Shown in pieces: positions 5,243 through 33,616 of a stretch of 64,000 nt of DNA. The notes beneath the pieces were generated by a model. It was not told where the DNA came from, made no database searches, and saw nothing but the letters and a program-made list of their open reading frames with translations. The stretch comes from Acidobacteriota bacterium (lineage in GTDB: Bacteria > Acidobacteriota > UBA6911 > RPQK01 > JAJDTT01): NCBI GenBank assembly GCA_965209055.1, contig OZ242374.1:4416001-4480000 (forward strand), read 5' to 3'. Position 1 is the first letter of the stretch, and each line of letters begins with the position of its first letter. The position numbers were made by a program, and so were the translations under genes.

Positions 5243-5740
5243 ATGACCAGACGGAGTGGAGCATCGCAGGCCGATTCCGGCGATGCCGAGGTGGTCCTCT
5301 ACACCGACGGCGCCTGCAGCGGAAATCCCGGTCCCGGAGGTTGGGCGTTCGTCCTGGAGCACCGCGCCTCGGGCAAGACACTGGAAGACAGCGGCTCGGA
5401 ACGGCAGACGACCAACAATCGAATGGAGCTTCAGGCAGTGATTCAGGGTCTCTCCAAGTTGACCCGGCGCGCTCGCGTCCACGTGGTGACCGACAGTTCC
5501 TACGTCGAGCAGGGAGCCACGGATTGGATCCACAAATGGAAGGCCCGCGGTTGGAAGAAGAGAACCTCCGGAAAGGGGCCGGTCAAGAACCAGGATCTCT
5601 GGGAGCAACTGGACCGGGTTCGGAACAGGCACGACGTGAGCTTCGAGCGCGTTCGTGGACATGCAGGACACCCCATGAACGAGCGTTGCGACGAGCTGGC
5701 AGTGGCGGCGTACCAGCACCTCAAGGAGAGCCGGTGGTAA
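5243..5740 (+). CDS. rnhA: ribonuclease HI
   Basis: YTDGACSGNPGPGGW, TTNNRMEL, TDSSYV, VKNQDLW, VRGHAGHPMNERCDELA. Confidence 0.97.
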   Translation: MTRRSGASQADSGDAEVVLYTDGACSGNPGPGGWAFVLEHRASGKTLEDSGSERQTTNNRMELQAVIQGLSKLTRRARVHVVTDSSYVEQGATDWIHKWKARGWKKRTSGKGPVKNQDLWEQLDRVRNRHDVSFERVRGHAGHPMNERCDELAVAAYQHLKESRW

Positions 5741-5832: not shown

Positions 5833-7038
5833 TCAAAGAGATCTGAGGAAGGCCAGCAGCGCGCCGCGTTCCTCCGCGGTCAGGGCTTCGAAAAGGGTTC
5901 GGCTGGACTCGGCCTCGACGCGATGCCTCAGAATCGCCGCTTCAATGGTGGCCGCGGACCCGTCGTGCAGATACGGAGCGCGATGCGAGACGCCCCAAAG
6001 AGCTGGCGTCCGGATCTCCGCTGGACCGGCATCTCCATCCTGAATCCCATCTCCGGTCCCGACGTCGTGGAGCAGAAAGTCCCCAAATGGTCTGAAAGTC
6101 TTGTTGCTGAGGGCTTCGAACGGGCTGGAGCCGGTCTGCAGAGTCGGAACGTGACAGGCGGAACAACGAACTTCCTCGAACAGTTCCTCCCCCCGCCGTG
6201 TCGTGTCGTTTTCCGTACCTCCGGGCGGCGGTCCCAGCAGGCGCATGAAATTCGCGAAGTTGTCGATTCCTCGCAGCCCCGTGGACAGTTCCGGCCCATC
6301 TTCAGGGTCGGCGACGGGGTCGATGAGTTCCAACGGCTCGCAGTCTCCGGCAGGACACATCTCGTCGGGGAACAGGTCGCTGGTGATCCCCATTTCGTTG
6401 CGGTAGGCCTCTGCTCCGAAGGTGAACAGGGAGGACTGCTGCGCCTTCCAACCGAAACGCCCGGCGCGCGTCTCTCCGGAGTCCCGGTCCACCACCCAGT
6501 GGACCCGCCCGCTGATTCCGTCGCCATCCTCGTCTTCCGGATCTTCCAGGGCCGCCAGAACCTCGTCCGGAACCGCTTCCACAAGACCGCCTCCGAACAA
6601 GGGGATCGGCTGCCGCCTGGCCACCACGTTGGCGCCTTCCGGGATCGCGGCCTGAATCGAATGGTCGGGAATGGAGAAGAGATGGATCAACGATCCGCCC
6701 GGCGGATCCTGAAAGGTTCCGTCGGCGTCCAGAGTTCCGGCCCGGACCTCGGTGATGGTGCTGATCCCCCCAATGGCGGGAGTAACGTGGCATTCGGCGC
6801 ATGAGCGGCCGTTGTACAGAGGCCCCAGTCCTTCATCGGCGTCCTCCACTTCCAGAAAGTCTTCGAGTCCCAGGCGGAAAAGTTCGAATTCCGCCCCATC
6901 GATTCCCTGGATGGGTTCGCCGAACTCGGTGCCCCGCACAACGGTTCCTTGCCCGGCCCCCGGACCGGACATCGCAGCAAGGGCCAGCGCCGTCGCCAGT
7001 ATGCCCCCCCCCTTCACCATCCGGCACCCTTTCCACAT
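5833..7038 (-). CDS. di-heme oxidoreductase (DHOR) family c-type cytochrome, exported
   Basis: GLGPLYNGRSCAECH and CSACH heme motifs; GISGR, GRFGWKA, RTPALWG, YLHDG; signal peptide. Start set at ATG 7038 (GGAAGGA RBS); 7020 is possible. Confidence 0.88.
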   Translation of the reverse strand: MWKGCRMVKGGGILATALALAAMSGPGAGQGTVVRGTEFGEPIQGIDGAEFELFRLGLEDFLEVEDADEGLGPLYNGRSCAECHVTPAIGGISTITEVRAGTLDADGTFQDPPGGSLIHLFSIPDHSIQAAIPEGANVVARRQPIPLFGGGLVEAVPDEVLAALEDPEDEDGDGISGRVHWVVDRDSGETRAGRFGWKAQQSSLFTFGAEAYRNEMGITSDLFPDEMCPAGDCEPLELIDPVADPEDGPELSTGLRGIDNFANFMRLLGPPPGGTENDTTRRGEELFEEVRCSACHVPTLQTGSSPFEALSNKTFRPFGDFLLHDVGTGDGIQDGDAGPAEIRTPALWGVSHRAPYLHDGSAATIEAAILRHRVEAESSRTLFEALTAEERGALLAFLRSL

Positions 7039-7057
7039 GGCGTTCCTTCCGCGGCCC

Positions 7058-7441
7058 TTATTCCACAATGATGGTTCCCCGCATCATGGTGTGGCCGGCG
7101 CCACAAGGCCGCGAGCATTCGAACGGATATTTCCCCGCCTTCCGGGATCGGAAACGGATCTTGATCTTTCCCTGACCCCGCCCCGGAATGGTGACGTCGA
7201 TGCCGGCCTTGGGGATGCGAAAGCCATGAAACGTGTCCTGACTGCTCAACTCGATCTCCAGCAGCGTTCCCCGCTTGACCCGAATCCTGGAGGGAATGAA
7301 GTGAAACCTCTCCGCCGAGACCCGAACCTTCCGGACCTTCGCGTCATCTTTCCGCTCCGCGGTTGAAACGGGGGACGCGGGACCGGCTCCCGGACCGAGC
7401 AGGAGCAGGACGAATGTCAGCAGGATCAGCGGGATCTTCAC
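7058..7441 (-). CDS. secreted stand-alone cupredoxin with complete CuA motif
   Basis: DTFHGF plus CSRPCGAGHTMM (H...CxxxCxxxHxxM); signal peptide from GTG 7441 with AGGAGG RBS. Confidence 0.88.
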   Translation of the reverse strand: MKIPLILLTFVLLLLGPGAGPASPVSTAERKDDAKVRKVRVSAERFHFIPSRIRVKRGTLLEIELSSQDTFHGFRIPKAGIDVTIPGRGQGKIKIRFRSRKAGKYPFECSRPCGAGHTMMRGTIIVE

Positions 7442-7452
7442 GGCCGTTCCTC

Positions 7453-8895
7453 CTAAAACCACCAGCCGATACCCAGGTTCCACCGGTTTCGGGGCCGCAC
7501 GACCCGGCTGGCGTTCCTCATGAAGTTGTAATCGGCTTTCAGGACCACATCCGGATGAGGAAAGTAGGACAGGCCCAGTATATGTGCCGACCGGTCGAAC
7601 TGGCTCAGGGGAAAGAACCCTTGAGGCATCCGGTACTGAGTGTCGAAGTTCTCGTAACGGTAAAACCCGACCAGATCATGGCTGGAACCGGACGGCACCA
7701 GACTGCTGGATCCCTCCAGGTAGAATCCCCGCATTCCCCGGGCAATGTTCGGGTTGATTCCGGCGCTGCGGCGAATCGCCGCATTGACTTCGGAAGCCTG
7801 TCCCAAATGGGTCACGGCAAATTGCCCTCGAGCTTCAAAGCGATCGAACCGGACCCTGCCGTCGAATTCGAAGATCCGCAATCGGGCGTCCAGATCCCGG
7901 AGGTGGAATCCCGTCTCTCCGGTCCAGAAGCTGGCGCCCAGATTCATTCCCGGAAGGGGTCCATAGTCGACTCGCCCGACCCAGGCCAGATTGCGCGCGT
8001 TCTCCAAGAACGATTTCTGCCTCCCCTCCCGGAATCCCTCTTCCGCCGAGAAGAGGGAGCCGTCCAGGGAACTCATGACATAGGTCTTGTAGGAAAGGCC
8101 GCCACCCAAGTCTCCCACCAGGCCTCCGCCGGCGGCGAACCAGGTGGTGGGGAGGATGACCTCATCCACGAAGGGACGCTCCACCCCGTGAAACGCCGTG
8201 GGTTCGTGTCTTTCGTTGATGATTCCCACCGGGGTCAACAGAACTCCGGCCCGAAAGTTGAATCGCGGGTCGATGAGAAAGTCCAGGAAGGCCTGTTCCA
8301 GTTCCAACTCGCCGGTGGGAGCGCCGCCCTCGATCAGACCGTGCTCGAGTTCCAACTCCGACCAGAACCGGATCCGATCTCCGAACATGTGGCCCAGGTT
8401 CAGAACGAAGCGGTGAAAATCGAGGGTCGTCGGGTTCAGGCCGTCGTGGTTGACATGCATCTCCATGTACCCGGACATGGGCATGCTGCCGTCGAAGAAT
8501 CCCGCTGAAGCGTCGATCGCCTCAGGCGCCGCCACCACCTCGGCCACCACCATCGCCTCCTCCACAGGCGATGGTTCCTCTGCCGCCACGGCCGGTTCCG
8601 GACCCGGCTCTTCGACCCGGGCCGCGTCTCCGCGTATGGTCTTGAGCTCGGCGGCCAAGGTCCGAAGCTGAGTTTTCACGTCCTCGTCCAGCGTGCCCTC
8701 CAGGGCGGCGGCCAGGAGTGCGATCAGCCGCTCCAGATTGGATTCCATCCGGTCGAGACGGTCTTCCAGGGACTCCCGCGAGGGATCGCCTTCCGCCGCG
8801 CGGATCTCGCCCCCGACAGAAACGGCGACCAGCAGGAGGACGGGGACGGATCGAATGGCAATTGCCGCCGCCGTAGCGAGGCGAGAGTATTTCAT
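7453..8895 (-). CDS. outer-membrane beta-barrel porin-like protein with N-terminal coiled coil
   Basis: Signal peptide, coiled-coil/acidic linker, HRFVL...SELELEH...GELELEQA...GIINERHEP metal-ligand-rich motifs, C-terminal WNLGIGWWF beta-signal. Confidence 0.82.
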   Translation of the reverse strand: MKYSRLATAAAIAIRSVPVLLLVAVSVGGEIRAAEGDPSRESLEDRLDRMESNLERLIALLAAALEGTLDEDVKTQLRTLAAELKTIRGDAARVEEPGPEPAVAAEEPSPVEEAMVVAEVVAAPEAIDASAGFFDGSMPMSGYMEMHVNHDGLNPTTLDFHRFVLNLGHMFGDRIRFWSELELEHGLIEGGAPTGELELEQAFLDFLIDPRFNFRAGVLLTPVGIINERHEPTAFHGVERPFVDEVILPTTWFAAGGGLVGDLGGGLSYKTYVMSSLDGSLFSAEEGFREGRQKSFLENARNLAWVGRVDYGPLPGMNLGASFWTGETGFHLRDLDARLRIFEFDGRVRFDRFEARGQFAVTHLGQASEVNAAIRRSAGINPNIARGMRGFYLEGSSSLVPSGSSHDLVGFYRYENFDTQYRMPQGFFPLSQFDRSAHILGLSYFPHPDVVLKADYNFMRNASRVVRPRNRWNLGIGWWF

Positions 8896-8899
8896 GGTG

Positions 8900-8937
8900 C
8901 TAAACTTAAGTTTAGTCTTGTCTAAACTTCAGGTCAA
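8900..8937 (-). promoter_or_regulatory. sigma70 promoter overlapped by DtxR/MntR-like inverted repeats
   Basis: Minus strand TTGACC(8937-8932)-N17-TAAACT(8914-8909); inverted repeat AAGTTTAG-N6-CTAAACTT (8908-8929); perfect palindrome CTAAACTTAAGTTTAG (8900-8915). Confidence 0.75.
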
Positions 8938-9007: not shown

Positions 9008-11434
9008 TCAGCTTCCGGGCTCGGTTTCGGAAGCGATCCGATCGTAGATCCGGCGGGCGTGGTCATAGGCCTTGCGTGCCGCGCCCTTCTCCGAATCGCG
9101 GATCTTGCCCTGCTTCATCTTCCAGCATTGATCCACGGCCTGACGGCACCATTCGGCGCTCTTGCGGGAAGCCCGCACCGGCTTGTCTCCCACCAGGACG
9201 AAGATGGGATTGGTATGGGAGCTGGCAAGAACCCGCAGAGCGACCCAACTGGACCGGGTGAGCTCATGATCGAACTCGATCTCGTTCCAGTCGCCATCAG
9301 CCGTCACGACCCGGGTTGCCACGGGCTGACCGTTCACCACCAGTTCCAGGGGCACCTCACGGCTGGTTCCCCTGCGGGCCCGTTCCAGATGCCAATAGGG
9401 AGGCTGAGTCAAGCCCCGGGAGGCAATCAACGCGCCCACGTCATCCTGCCTTTCCGGAAGGTAGGCGGCGACCCGGGCCCGGACCTTCACCCGGCCGGGT
9501 GCGGCCAGCCTGAGTTCACTTCCCTCCGTACCCAGTTCCCGGTCCTGCACCCGAAACCCGATGATGTGCGATCTGCCGTCCGAGACGTAGCTCCGCCCGG
9601 CGCGGATCTGATCCATGTAGCGGTCGAAATCCAACTCCCCTTCCAGCTTCGCGTAGCTGCGAGACATCCCGATTCGGTCATCGTAAATGCAGGGAAAGTC
9701 GGTCTCTCCACTGATGCGGGTCCGAAACCCGGAGTTCAGGGTGTGGTACCAGATGTTGAACTCCCAGGGCAGCGGCGTGTCTCCGGCGGAAATGAAGTCC
9801 ACCGCGTCGTGGGTGACCGACACGATGTACTCATTGGCGCCGATTCCGTCGAACTTGGCCATCACGTAGTTGGGCAGCTCGGTGGTGAATTCCATCGGCT
9901 CCAGGCCCCATCCCGAATGGGAGTAGCCGACGACGGCCCCCTGACCCTGTCCCCACTGCAGGACAGGAAGGGTCCAGCTCGGCCATTGCTGGACCCGGGT
10001 CGTCCCGGGGTAGTCGTCTTCCCGCAGGCGCAGAAGACAGAGATGGCCCGCGTGCGAGGAGGGAAAACCGGAAACCTCCACGTCGTAACGCATCAGGTTG
10101 TTCCGGTTGGAGAGGGAATGCACCCGGCCCTCGAAGAACTCCTTCTGGTGATACCAACACGGTCCCCAGGTCAAGACGCAGGCGATGTTCAAATCTTCGC
10201 CCAGGGCCTGGCGCCACATGTGAAGCGGCTGGACCCCTTCGTCGGGGCTCTCGTAGTGGCTGCACCCGGCGGCATGGACATGGTGGTCGGCGCTGTACCA
10301 GCCCAGGGCCGCCAAATGCGTCCAGCGCTGCAGCCGGAAATCGATCTCCTGCTCTTCGACCCCGGAACGAACGCGGACTCTCCGGTTCTGAACCAGGTAT
10401 TCCGGACCGCGGGTGACGCGAATCTCGTATTCGCCCGCCGGCAGGAAGACATGCTCCCCGTCGGCACGGTAGACCTGAGGGTGGAAGAAAAAATCGGGAT
10501 ATTCTCCGCGGGAGAGCCGCCGCGACGGCAATGGGTAGACCCCCACCAGGCGGCCGACGGGGCCGGGAGTATTGCCGATGCCCCGGGTCCGGTCCCAGGG
10601 ACGCCTCAACGCCAGAGCCAACCGGTAGTCCGAGGGCAGCCGGTTCAGTTCCGGATCCTCGATCACCCGTTCGATGCCGTCGGTGATGACGAACGACGCC
10701 ATGGTGGGAGAACCGTCGTGATCCTTGACCCGGAGCCGGACCTTAACCGCAGGGCGGCAATCGAAGAGGATGTCCACGCTGTTGCGAAAGCCCAGGTCCT
10801 GGGTCCCCTGCCCCACGTGGAATCCGATCTTGGCTTCGCGCAGCCCCTGTTCCCGAGCGTAGATCTGGACGATGGCGTACTCCAGCTTCAGACCCGATAG
10901 GCGGCTGTGCAAGGGACGGCGGCCATAGATGGCCAACTCCAGGAAACGATTGGCCACGTCTCCGTCCGAGAGCACGTTCTCCGGCTTGACCCGCTTGGCT
11001 CCGGTCGACTTGTGAAACAGCGGCAGCGCATTGGGGCTCTCGGCGTGGAGCTGGGCGTTGACGGCCGCGTCGTTTTCTATCTTGACCAGAAAGCTGGACC
11101 ATCCTCCCTGGACCAGGAGGGGAGCCGCCGGTCCGCGAATCACCTTGACCCGGGCCTCGGGGTTGATGGACACCATGGCGAGGCAATACGGATCCAGAAC
11201 GGTCTGGATTTCACGGACCACGGCATCGGAAGGCGCCTGATCCCTCAGGGCCTGGATCCGCTCCCAGTCCCGGCTCTCCAAGCGGCTGCCCAGGAACGAA
11301 AGGGCTTCCCCAAGGCGGACGACCTGAGCCATCAGCGGCTGAGGCTCGACTTCGTCTACCAATGGCAACGCCTGTCCGGGGAGTAGCGAAAGGAAAGAGG
11401 CGGAGAGGACGATCAGCGCCATGGCCTGTTTCAC
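9008..11434 (-). CDS. CehA/McbA family secreted metallohydrolase (PHP-like)
   Basis: Signal peptide, GWYSADHHVHAAGCSHY, YSHSGWG, SGETDFPC, GRSYVSDG. Confidence 0.8.
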   Translation of the reverse strand: MKQAMALIVLSASFLSLLPGQALPLVDEVEPQPLMAQVVRLGEALSFLGSRLESRDWERIQALRDQAPSDAVVREIQTVLDPYCLAMVSINPEARVKVIRGPAAPLLVQGGWSSFLVKIENDAAVNAQLHAESPNALPLFHKSTGAKRVKPENVLSDGDVANRFLELAIYGRRPLHSRLSGLKLEYAIVQIYAREQGLREAKIGFHVGQGTQDLGFRNSVDILFDCRPAVKVRLRVKDHDGSPTMASFVITDGIERVIEDPELNRLPSDYRLALALRRPWDRTRGIGNTPGPVGRLVGVYPLPSRRLSRGEYPDFFFHPQVYRADGEHVFLPAGEYEIRVTRGPEYLVQNRRVRVRSGVEEQEIDFRLQRWTHLAALGWYSADHHVHAAGCSHYESPDEGVQPLHMWRQALGEDLNIACVLTWGPCWYHQKEFFEGRVHSLSNRNNLMRYDVEVSGFPSSHAGHLCLLRLREDDYPGTTRVQQWPSWTLPVLQWGQGQGAVVGYSHSGWGLEPMEFTTELPNYVMAKFDGIGANEYIVSVTHDAVDFISAGDTPLPWEFNIWYHTLNSGFRTRISGETDFPCIYDDRIGMSRSYAKLEGELDFDRYMDQIRAGRSYVSDGRSHIIGFRVQDRELGTEGSELRLAAPGRVKVRARVAAYLPERQDDVGALIASRGLTQPPYWHLERARRGTSREVPLELVVNGQPVATRVVTADGDWNEIEFDHELTRSSWVALRVLASSHTNPIFVLVGDKPVRASRKSAEWCRQAVDQCWKMKQGKIRDSEKGAARKAYDHARRIYDRIASETEPGS

Positions 11435-11627: not shown

Positions 11628-12521
11628 ATGCCCGATGCAGACCGGCCAGGCGAAGCCAAAAAATTCTACAGGGATATTCCCGCAACCAATAAGCCCTTCT
11701 TTCTGAAGGGATCCAATTCTCTGGACTGGGGAATGCAGAACCGCCTTTCCCGGATCTTCAACCCGGCTTCGGGGCGCACCGTCATGCTGGCCATCGACCA
11801 TGGCTACTTCATGGGTCCCACCACCGGCCTGGAACGGATCGACGTTCGCATCGTCCCCATCCTGGACTACTGCGACGCCCTGATGCTGACCCGGGGAATC
11901 CTTCGCACCACCATCCCCTCCAGCTTCGGCCGTGGGACCGTGCTCCGGGCCAGCGGCGGCCCCAGCATCCTCAAGGAGCTTTCCGACGAGCAACTCGCCC
12001 TGGACATCGAGGACGGTCTCCGGGCCAACGCCGCGGCCCTTGCGGTCCAGGTCTTCATCGGAGGGGAGTACGAGAGCCAATCGGTCCTGAACATGACCCG
12101 GCTCGTCGATCTGGGGAACCGCTATGGAATGCCGGTTCTGGCGGTGACGGCAGTGGGCCACGAGATGGAGCGGAATGCCAAGTATTTCCGGCTCGCCTGC
12201 AGGATGTGCGCGGAGCTGGGGGCTCATATCGTCAAGAGCTACTACATTCCCGACGGTTTCGAGACTGTGACCTCCTCCTGCCCCGTTCCCATGGTCATGG
12301 CCGGCGGCAAGAAGCTGCCGGAGCTGGATGCCCTCACCATGGCCTACAACGCGGTGCAGCAGGGAGCGTCAGGCGTGGATATGGGCCGCAACATCTTCCA
12401 GAGCGACACTCCCATCGCCATGATCCAGGCGATCCGCCAAGTGGTCCACAACCAGTTGAAGCCGAGCCACGCCTACGAGCTGTACCAGGACATGAGAGCC
12501 GAGAGCCTGGCCTCGACCTGA
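11628..12521 (+). CDS. lsrF: LsrF thiolase / class I aldolase (DhnA family)
   Basis: FFLKG[12 protein letters not shown], [47 protein letters not shown]. Confidence 0.9.
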
Positions 12522-32941: not shown

Positions 32942-33616
32942 ATGGCAGCCAAGACGACACCGGTGATCAGCCGTGCAATGGAAGATTACCTCAAGGCCAT
33001 CTACGAGTTGGCCGCCGGAGACTCGCTGGTCACGACCTCCAGGGTCGCCGCCGCCATGTCATGCCGGCCGGCCAGCGTGACCAACATGGTCCAGCGCCTT
33101 TCCGACCTGAAGCTGGTGGAATACCAGCGCTACAAGGGAGTCCGCCTGACTCCGGCCGGAACCCGGATCGCGCTCGAGATCATCCGGCACCACCGGCTGC
33201 TGGAACTGTACCTGTCCGAGGTCCTGGGCTACACCTGGGACAAGGTGCACGAGGAAGCGGATCTCCTGGAACACGTCATTTCCGAGGAGTTCGAAGAGAA
33301 GATCGACCAGGCGCTCGGATATCCCCGGAAGGATCCCCACGGCGATCCCATTCCAACCAAGAAAGGCGAGATCGATCTGGAACGGGTGGGAAGGCTCTGG
33401 GACATGGTCGCCGGCCAGGAGACCCGGGTGCGGAGGGTCAGCGACAAGGACCCCAATGTCCTGCGCCACCTGGCCTCCATCGGCATCTTCCCCGACGTCA
33501 AGCTGGACCTGGTGAGACGTGACCCTTTCAACGGACCCGTCTACGTCCGGGTCAATGGAGTCGAGCACGGACTCAGCGAGGAACTGGCCCGCCAGATCTT
33601 CGTCAGCCTGCCATGA
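32942..33616 (+). CDS. DtxR/MntR family metal-dependent repressor with FeoA domain
   Basis: EDYLKAIY, RHHRLLELYL, HEEADLLEH, DPHGDPIP, C-terminal FeoA/SH3-like domain. Confidence 0.93.
   Translation: MAAKTTPVISRAMEDYLKAIYELAAGDSLVTTSRVAAAMSCRPASVTNMVQRLSDLKLVEYQRYKGVRLTPAGTRIALEIIRHHRLLELYLSEVLGYTWDKVHEEADLLEHVISEEFEEKIDQALGYPRKDPHGDPIPTKKGEIDLERVGRLWDMVAGQETRVRRVSDKDPNVLRHLASIGIFPDVKLDLVRRDPFNGPVYVRVNGVEHGLSEELARQIFVSLP

Follow-up and report, generated by a model that had tools for sequence, protein, structure and literature searches.

A conserved porin, CuA cupredoxin and di-haem DHOR operon of Acidobacteriota as a candidate metal acquisition module

In a 64-kb stretch of an acidobacterial genome (positions 4,416,001-4,480,000 of a 6.08 Mb single contig; hereafter the window) we analysed three adjacent genes, here called the triad, which encode an outer-membrane porin, a cupredoxin with the ligands of a binuclear CuA centre and a di-haem protein of the DHOR family. 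The triad is a self-contained module that was found in the same gene order in all 20 loci compared within the order to which the window belongs. The best explanation is that it serves metal acquisition at the outer membrane and in the periplasm with the help of a CuA/haem redox pair and is induced by metal limitation, most likely of manganese and possibly of iron. We propose this function tentatively, as one that falls a little short of probable.

Gene arrangement and conservation

The triad comprises three co-directional open reading frames (ORFs) that span 5833-8895 on the minus strand and are ordered porin, cupredoxin, DHOR in the direction of transcription.

7453..8895, minus strand: porin gene, 480 amino acids, ATG start, stop codon TAG at 7455-7453
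7058..7441, minus strand: cupredoxin gene, 127 amino acids, GTG start at 7441, stop codon TAA at 7060-7058
5833..7038, minus strand: DHOR gene, 401 amino acids, ATG start at 7038

The longest ORFs for the cupredoxin and DHOR extend to 7058-7483 and 5833-7068, respectively; we assigned the starts to the GTG at 7441, which is preceded by GGAGGA, and to the ATG at 7038. A preliminary description, made from the sequence of the window alone, had reported tight spacing with gaps of 11 and about 19 nucleotides (nt). Reading the junctions base by base confirmed this, with 11 nt between porin and cupredoxin genes (7442-7452) and 19 nt between cupredoxin and DHOR genes (7039-7057).

Subsequently, the synteny of the triad was surveyed in four sets of loci. 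Strong cupredoxin matches (E <= 1e-27) were present in 25 of the 41 genomes of the window's order, and the order porin, cupredoxin, DHOR was kept in 20/20 loci from 19 related genomes. No further gene family was common to the triad in those 20 loci, and the flanking genes of the window recur only in its own genus. Scanning species-representative genomes with the porin alignment yielded 142 relatives. Among the best 80 of the 142, the porin gene was followed by cupredoxin and DHOR genes in 77; two of the three remaining loci, L098 and L100, have other genes downstream, and for the third, L104, the contig is too short for a decision. When metagenomes were scanned with the cupredoxin as anchor, at least 566 relatives were found. 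In the best 80, both partners were found in 68 loci and one partner in 12 loci that had no room for the other, so that there were no exceptions (80/80 where room was available). Finally, a profile of the cupredoxin matched 57 of 301 genomes sampled across the phylum (E <= 1e-18), and these matches fell into two tiers. The triad-type cupredoxin makes up the top one, which had best E values of <= 1.4e-38 and comprised 27 of the 301 genomes, and 14/14 further top-tier loci from this sample carry the triad. Among the 409 flanking ORFs of the genome set no family occurred in more than eight loci. Judging by the names on the relatives, nearly all triad carriers belong to Acidobacteriota. The counts include the unpublished genomes G016 (loci L018, L046 and L145), G043 (L097) and G067, and no result depends on them.

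Several individual loci can be mentioned here. Genome G009 carries two complete copies of the triad (L013 on contig C6 and L014 on contig C4). In L017 (G024:C1:118000-135000, a 98%-complete single contig) the matches to the porin and to DHOR are both split into two parts that lie in different frames, a possible sign of decay or of an assembly error. Three triad contigs bear labels of other groups, namely Candidatus Aminicenantes (L030, with a porin 97% identical to that of the window), Bifidobacteriaceae (L090) and Acidimicrobiia (L095); these are probably binning or labelling errors.

The CuA cupredoxin

By its sequence, the 127-residue product of the second gene is an exported, stand-alone cupredoxin with the full set of CuA ligands, and the earlier claim to this effect was upheld. 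The protein matched the Pfam families Cupredoxin_1 (PF13473; E 1.6e-9, 38.1 bits against a cut-off of 27) and COX2 (PF00116; 25.5 bits against a cut-off of 22), and the closest solved structures were the soluble CuA domain of the Thermus ba3 oxidase and its engineered variants (E 7e-13 to 8e-11). The histidine of an HGF motif and the C-X3-C-X3-H-X2-M block align with the Thermus CuA ligand positions, and the corresponding residues H72, C109, C113, H117 and M120 were invariant in the alignment of 40/40 family members. The models of established CuA enzymes scored far below their cut-offs, with 43.7 bits against 147.7 for CoxB (TIGR02866) and 21-40 bits against 625-700 for the NosZ models. The hydrophobic N-terminal segment may act as a signal peptide or as an anchor. 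Among the eight neighbouring proteins scanned there was no imelysin, oxidase subunit I or NosZ, in line with the previously noted lack of the latter two nearby. Our search gave no cupredoxin relatives lengthened by fusion, which is weak evidence; apparent porin-cupredoxin and cupredoxin-DHOR fusions in L021 and L023 were rejected, as the long ORFs proved to be out-of-frame upstream extensions.

The porin

The first gene had been described as encoding a beta-barrel, and structure modelling agreed. The protein is laid out as a signal peptide, a periplasmic coiled coil, a linker and a 16-strand barrel from about residue 140, and it ends in WWF. The model built from a 14-sequence alignment had 16 predicted strands, with a predicted local distance difference test (pLDDT) score of 56.5 overall and about 70-80 across much of the barrel. 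A Foldseek search with this model returned OmpU, OmpC, OprP (2o4v), DcaP and other porins with E values of 7e-10 to 1.5e-7. The window porin itself has no Pfam match at E 0.01, PF07396 (Porin_O_P) included. Precomputed PF07396 matches exist for some of its relatives, the porin of L098 scores 20.7 bits against the cut-off of 20.9 and the Atlas neighbours of the porin are Porin_O_P clusters.

The barrel is strongly conserved. Over 81 sequences, 94 of its 346 residues are at least 95% identical, among them 12 glutamates, 6 aspartates and 5 histidines, and an internal loop (residues 223-250) is nearly invariant. The invariant residues E180, E182 and E184 as well as E196, E198 and E200 alternate with leucine on two adjacent predicted strands. 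Because of this alternation the glutamates probably face the lumen, an orientation read from the strand pattern and not from coordinates. The invariant glutamate ladders suggest a cation channel. The porin has no plug domain and contains no cysteine.

Porin relatives were also seen without the cupredoxin and DHOR, in L098:4926-7275 and L104 (records labelled Nitrospirota) and in L100:912-6089 (labelled 'bacterium'). In L098 and L100 the porin gene is followed by a gene for an FMN_bind protein and then by one for a small histidine-containing membrane protein of about 170-180 amino acids, apparently with four hydrophobic helices. A 19-bp palindrome lies upstream of the porin in L100 and L104 and a related one in L098; we take these palindromes to be Fur-box-like. 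In L100 the palindrome is located between the porin gene and an FeoB gene, which is itself preceded by a Fur gene. Judging from these contexts, control by metal regulators and proximity to small exported redox proteins recur in the porin family.

The di-haem DHOR protein

The third gene encodes a protein with a signal peptide, an acidic DxDGDGISGR loop and, as first described, two CxxCH motifs of a DHOR protein. It matched PF06537 (formerly DUF1111) with 165.2 bits against a cut-off of 22, covering profile positions 212-499 only, and both haem-binding motifs (C80/C83/H84 and C292/C295/H296) were invariant in 40/40 family members. Its only solved relatives were di-haem peroxidases and MauG (YhjA, 9qdt, E 2.5e-6; BccP, 3o5c, E 1.2e-4), and there were weak matches to the MbnH family (TIGR04039, E 5.4e-4; structure 6e1c, E 6.6e-3). 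The NCBIfam models for di-haem cytochrome c peroxidases (CCPs), MauG and MbnH gave at best 16.7-19.1 bits against cut-offs of 150-444. The structure model reached a pLDDT of 58.9 and its Foldseek matches were weak (best E 3.8e-3), with all rows being CCP or MauG. The sequence matches and the weak fold matches thus place the triad DHOR in the di-haem peroxidase/MauG superfamily but outside those families.

DHOR/DUF1111 genes have been found in iron-linked imelysin operons, as PMC3143127 and bioRxiv 10.1101/072470 relate. The preliminary description likewise stated that DHOR genes usually accompany imelysin genes and that the triad lacks one; the first point holds within this genome and in the two sources, and the second holds as well. 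No imelysin was found at the triad or in the 20 related loci, and the canonical imelysin-DHOR locus of the genome lies elsewhere. This second DHOR is full-length (366 bits) and adjoins an imelysin (PF09375) gene; the triad DHOR is a shorter paralogue, 31% identical to it, that lacks about 60 residues of insertions. The canonical locus, L112 (G000:C1:4203000-4220000, minus strand), consists of genes for a 530-residue protein of unknown function, imelysin, the full-length DHOR and a 251-residue protein of unknown function. Two 15-bp TGAAAT-N3-ATTTCA palindromes (L112:12424 and 12487) lie upstream of its first gene, and an Nramp-family gene is located about 10 kb from the locus. The palindrome differs from the one described below for the triad, which suggests that the two DHOR systems of the genome respond to separate signals.

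The cupredoxin and DHOR are oppositely charged, and the note of an Arg/Lys-rich cupredoxin beside an Asp/Glu-rich DHOR holds in the window and in most of the family. The cupredoxin domain has an isoelectric point (pI) of 11.15 and a net charge of +11 (family median pI 9.8, range 5.25-11.5, n=40), as compared with a pI of 4.31 and a net charge of -40 for DHOR (family median pI 4.7, net charge -12 to -40, n=40). These charges, with median pI values of 9.8 and 4.7, would favour the two proteins acting as a redox pair. The c-type cytochromes found next to other stand-alone CuA-motif cupredoxins of the phylum, described below, point in the same direction.

Promoter, operator and candidate regulator

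Scanning for promoters gave two sites in 7 kb, with 0.7 expected by chance, and a putative operator was recognised in the sequence upstream of the porin gene.

8932..8937, minus strand: -35-like hexamer TTGACC
8909..8914, minus strand: -10-like hexamer TAAACT, after a 17-nt spacer, inside the operator
8900..8929, minus strand: putative operator of three 8-nt half-sites (inverted 8-6-8, then 8-0-8), core TTTAG-N6-CTAAA

The putative operator runs between the -35 and -10 hexamers, overlaps the latter and extends to 8900. The distance from the -10-like hexamer to the porin ATG (8895) is just 13 nt, and there is no evident Shine-Dalgarno sequence; a real promoter at this place would give a nearly leaderless transcript, its leader being very short. 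An exact-box search showed that the operator core is unique in the 6.08 Mb genome, in which a control pattern had two matches per strand. In 35 of 80 genome loci of about 11 kb each, the core TTTAG-N6-CTAAA occurs once per locus and always just upstream of the porin, and the genera that have the same core differ in their upstream neighbour genes. With a generic palindrome finder, an AT-rich 5-6-5 palindrome was detected upstream of the porin in 55 of the 78 loci with upstream DNA, with arms TTTAG in 35 and TTTTG in 13.

The link to a regulator comes from a sister lineage (records labelled Vicinamibacterales and others), where TTTTGA-N4-TCAAAA is found upstream of the porin in the same 5-6-5 frame. 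There, the triad has a DtxR-family gene next to it in 7 loci and also in 4 of the 14 phylum-sample loci (some genomes are possibly common to both sets). A second copy of the box was found upstream of the adjacent DtxR-family gene in L090, L095, L097, L101, L102, L260, L263 and L269. In 4/4 sister-lineage genomes the adjacent gene was the only PF02742 match, and in genomes G041 and G042 the exact box occurred exactly twice, at the porin and at the regulator, with no match of the control pattern; the third genome searched, G044, had no exact copy. The presence of the box both at the porin and at the sole DtxR-family gene ties box, regulator and triad together in the sister lineage. In L260 (G086) and L263 (G114) two DtxR-family genes stand side by side next to the triad, with the box between or beside them.

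In the window, the corresponding candidate lies apart from the triad:

32942..33616, plus strand: candidate regulator gene, the only DtxR-family gene found in the genome, three domains, linked to the operator by analogy with the sister lineage

Its product is 39% identical to the regulator of L090 and, by analogy, is a plausible repressor of the operator. The primary iron site of DtxR is formed by Met10, Cys102, Glu105 and His106 and MntR's manganese site by Asp8, Glu99, Glu102 and His103, as given in PMC4805248. In a gapless register with DtxR, the window protein has D15, D107, E110 and H111 at the four DtxR positions. At the position of M10, 37 further regulators have Asp (29) or Asn (7), one is not aligned and none has Met; at the position of C102, 37/37 have Asp or Glu and never Cys. 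Going by these residues, the metal site is of the manganese and not the iron type. The best solved relatives of the window protein were 5zr4, 8pvt, ScaR and SloR, ahead of IdeR and DtxR, and we assume the first four to be manganese sensors. The operon had originally been called metal-repressed; the part of this claim that concerns an operator is supported by its conservation, and the part that concerns the repressor applies to a candidate deduced from related loci.

Proposed function and alternative explanations

We propose that the porin, cupredoxin and DHOR genes form one operon, which would be switched on when a divalent metal, most likely manganese and possibly iron, is scarce. When the metal is plentiful, a metal-loaded repressor of the DtxR/MntR type would occupy the palindrome overlapping the -10 hexamer. 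A repressor that needs metal to bind DNA turns its genes on in scarcity, which argues for acquisition or compensation and against the metal being used as fuel. Upon derepression, a channel resembling trimeric porins would admit the cation without TonB through glutamate ladders in its lumen, as a charge mirror of the arginine ladder of OprP. The basic exported CuA cupredoxin would act purely as a one-electron carrier, and its partner would be the very acidic, compact di-haem enzyme, which belongs to the DHOR branch of the CCP/MauG superfamily. The two may be partners in periplasmic electron transfer and shift the oxidation state of the metal as it comes in, either by oxidising M(II) as a trap, as has been proposed for EfeB and EfeO with iron, or by reducing M(III) complexes so as to give M(II) that can be transported. 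Final uptake would fall to an inner-membrane importer whose gene lies elsewhere. The genes present, their ligand sets, the strict synteny, the operator and the link to a regulator in the sister lineage are observed; cation selectivity, the identity of the metal, the CuA-haem contact, the direction of electron flow and the regulator in the window's own lineage are predicted features of the model. The TonB-independent uptake of iron or manganese put forward in the preliminary description gains from the absence of a plug domain in the porin and from distant relatives beside Fur and FeoB; as to the choice of metal, the regulator ligands favour manganese over iron.

A number of observations weigh against this proposal. 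The module as found in the 20 related loci and the 409 flanking ORFs contains no inner-membrane permease, binding protein or chaperone, so that uptake is incomplete as encoded. No perfect AT-rich palindrome was seen upstream of 10 Nramp-family matches inspected in the genome, hence no manganese importer has been shown to share the box, and a search of the genome gave no ZnuA (PF01297) match. In 30 loci of the window's order no box was present beside the DtxR-family gene. Furthermore, the regulator occurs in 38 of the 41 genomes of the order compared with 25 of 41 for the triad cupredoxin, and also where the cupredoxin was not found, and two Fur-family genes of the window genome could encode the protein that binds the operator instead. 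Among 40 metagenome loci, only 16 had an exact palindrome upstream of the porin. The assignment to manganese depends on ligand residues and on properties that we attribute to homologues, and members of this regulator branch can also answer to iron. No substrate chemistry is known for CuA sites, and for oxidising a metal a peroxidase could do without CuA. Moreover, the porin and DHOR models are of low confidence (pLDDT 56.5 and 58.9), and a minority of the family cupredoxins are not basic (minimum pI 5.25, net charge -3).

The main alternative is a metal-sparing defence against peroxide. When manganese is scarce and manganese-dependent antioxidant enzymes fail, the CuA cupredoxin would feed respiratory electrons to DHOR for the reduction of H2O2, and the porin would independently improve the entry of manganese. 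Azurin or pseudoazurin donate electrons to bacterial cytochrome c peroxidases, and the combination of a small basic cupredoxin with an acidic di-haem protein is in keeping with such a donor-peroxidase pair. The restriction of the solved relatives and of the weak Foldseek rows of DHOR to di-haem peroxidases, CCP and MauG points the same way, and the same limitation-responsive regulation would apply. Nevertheless, all the NCBIfam CCP and MauG models scored far below their cut-offs on DHOR, the relatives of DHOR are linked to metal loci and not to peroxide stress loci, and the strict synteny with a highly specialised porin as the first gene is left unexplained. We consider this alternative unlikely.

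A second alternative, which we judge to be no better than the first and likewise unlikely, assigns the triad to iron. It would be a TonB-independent route for Fe(II) like those of EfeUOB and the imelysin-DHOR loci, with the cupredoxin in place of the EfeO cupredoxin or imelysin partner and with DHOR as ferroxidase or peroxidase. The association of DHOR/DUF1111 operons with iron in the literature (PMC3143127, bioRxiv 10.1101/072470) is in its favour. So are the porin-only relatives behind Fur-box-like palindromes, one of them (L100) beside Fur and FeoB. However, the primary site of the linked regulator is of the manganese and not the iron type in 37/37 sequences, a canonical imelysin-DHOR locus exists in the same genome and has another palindrome (TGAAAT-N3-ATTTCA, in two copies), and the basic surface of the cupredoxin is ill-suited to bind Fe(II) itself.

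It is much less probable that the barrel, cupredoxin and c-type cytochrome serve energy conservation or extracellular electron transfer, oxidising Fe(II) or Mn(II) or passing electrons across the envelope. The same three kinds of parts are present in the Cyc2-rusticyanin-Cyc1 system of acidophilic iron oxidisers, and the phylum has a second, non-homologous module of a CuA cupredoxin, a mono-haem lipoprotein cytochrome c and a DUF5777 barrel, which is described below. On the other hand, a porin that has no cysteine has no haem site, no oxidase genes were present among the neighbours scanned, and a metal-loaded repressor would presumably shut the operon down exactly when the fuel is abundant. 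Finally, we regard it as extremely unlikely that DHOR, like MauG or MbnH, oxidatively modifies a residue of the cupredoxin or porin to give a functional metal binder, as the strict pairing of the genes and the weak MbnH-family matches (TIGR04039 and 6e1c) might suggest, for the MbnH-type scores are far below the family cut-offs and the CuA ligands of the cupredoxin, complete and invariant as they stand, need no modification.

Taken together, acquisition of a scarce metal with the help of a CuA/haem redox pair is the function that we favour for the triad. A more specific claim, which we put forward as doubtful, is that the triad contains the first natural stand-alone CuA protein that carries single electrons as a soluble shuttle. 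Its partners would be a compact di-haem DHOR and a cation porin with glutamate ladders, all three in a regulon for manganese limitation, and together they would form a TonB-independent, redox-assisted machine for manganese acquisition, for instance by reducing Mn(III) complexes or by trapping Mn(II) oxidatively. Such a machine would be widespread in Acidobacteriota and one of at least two or three unrelated modules of barrel, CuA protein and haem c in this phylum.

All three parts of the triad come from known superfamilies, and in its logic it is similar to the imelysin-DHOR loci, EfeUOB and FtrABCD. What is unusual is that its CuA protein is free and that its porin bears glutamate ladders. 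In the open-access literature searched we found no account of the three genes together. CuA centres are known from respiratory oxidases and N2O reductase, into which they are built as the sites where electrons enter; a CuA protein that is free, exported and provided with a haem partner of its own would, if true, represent a novel kind of electron carrier in the periplasm. Proteins of the DHOR/DUF1111 family are common, and we know of no member with a proven reaction; the triad DHOR, in a minimal three-gene context with a clear regulatory handle, offers a cleaner test case than the imelysin loci. Furthermore, the passage of manganese or Fe(II) across the Gram-negative outer membrane without TonB is poorly understood, and a porin with invariant glutamate ladders is a concrete candidate for such entry. 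Acidobacteriota are among the dominant soil phyla, and the triad is frequent in the data searched, to judge by the relatives of its cupredoxin in at least 566 metagenome stretches, by 3305 porin relatives (E <= 0.001) among 8000 candidates scored and by the triad-type cupredoxin in 27 of the 301 sampled phylum genomes.

Other CuA-motif modules and neighbouring genes

The second tier of the phylum-wide search consists of other stand-alone cupredoxins; the CuA spacing was kept in 15 of the 16 loci examined, and the triad partners were absent. In one recurring module (L243, L244, L246, L257 and also L245), genes for a sensor histidine kinase and a sigma-54 response regulator accompany those for a CuA-motif cupredoxin, a lipoprotein-like mono-haem cytochrome c of about 150 amino acids and a DUF5777 barrel. 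In L243 and L246 the lipoprotein-like protein showed a single CxxCH, and a small cupredoxin-like lipoprotein rich in His is encoded in addition in L243 and L245. No mention of DUF5777 (PF19089) was found in the open-access literature searched. In a third context (L249, L250, L251 and L255) a CuA-motif cupredoxin lies directly beside a mono-haem cytochrome c (PF13442) of 170-190 amino acids, with a calcineurin-like phosphoesterase also present in two of the four loci. Free CuA-motif proteins thus keep recurring in the phylum together with c-type haem proteins, and often an outer-membrane barrel accompanies them.

The genes around the triad in the window are as follows.

5243-5740, plus strand: RNase HI gene, downstream of the triad and convergent with it
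9008-11434, minus strand: CehA/McbA-family metallohydrolase gene, 112 nt upstream of the triad, 808 amino acids, C-terminal domain 277 bits
1924-4729, minus strand: genes for subunits of a PaoA/PaoC-like molybdenum aldehyde oxidoreductase, the Fe-S subunit carrying a Tat signal
11628-12521, plus strand: gene for an LsrF-type thiolase/aldolase, 477 bits

The CehA/McbA-family gene adjoins the triad only inside the window's genus. The G+C content of the 64-kb window is about 0.60-0.69, and the genome (G000) is catalogued with 7.4% contamination.

Comparison with known systems

EfeUOB and FtrABCD are among the closest parallels in logic. FtrB is the cupredoxin-type component of FtrABCD, and EfeB is a DyP peroxidase. 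As in these systems, a periplasmic cupredoxin-type domain and a redox enzyme would be coupled to the uptake of a divalent metal in the triad (the cupredoxin domain of EfeO is described in PMC3143127). In contrast to them, the triad has an outer-membrane component and no Ftr1/EfeU permease, since no further gene is conserved with it. Its copper site is predicted to be of the binuclear CuA type and not of the EfeO/FtrB type, and its enzyme is a c-type di-haem protein instead of a DyP peroxidase.

With the operons of imelysin (EfeO-like), DHOR/DUF1111 and DUF1513 of Proteobacteria (PA4370-4373 type) the triad shares an exported DHOR in an envelope locus that has no inner-membrane permease and is metal-regulated, as the triad would be, according to PMC3143127 and bioRxiv 10.1101/072470. 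It differs from them in lacking imelysin and DUF1513, in having a CuA cupredoxin and a porin, and in its shorter DHOR.

The cupredoxin has the fold of the CuA domains of NosZ and of subunit II of cytochrome ba3/aa3 oxidases, and its His and Cys-X3-Cys-X3-His-X2-Met set aligns with theirs residue by residue. Unlike those domains, it is a free-standing, exported protein of 127 amino acids, with neither a subunit I nor a NosZ catalytic domain. The DHOR resembles MauG, MbnH and the di-haem cytochrome c peroxidases with cupredoxin donors in its two c-type haems, its CCP/MauG-like scaffold and a small cupredoxin as the likely redox partner. It falls below the cut-offs of these families, and to have a CuA protein as partner where others have a type-1 copper protein would be novel.

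Among outer-membrane channels, the porin is predicted to be of the same fold class as the OprP/OprO phosphate porins (PF07396) and, like them, carries a ladder of like-charged residues on the barrel wall. This ladder consists of glutamate in the triad porin and of arginine in OprP, as stated in the title of 2o4v, and the triad porin has an N-terminal coiled coil in addition. A possible functional counterpart, compared here by its description, is MnoP of Bradyrhizobium, an outer-membrane manganese channel made under manganese limitation according to the review PMC9334652. The triad porin would be similar to MnoP as an outer-membrane channel for a divalent metal made under scarcity, and it would differ in having redox partners, with which MnoP is not reported.

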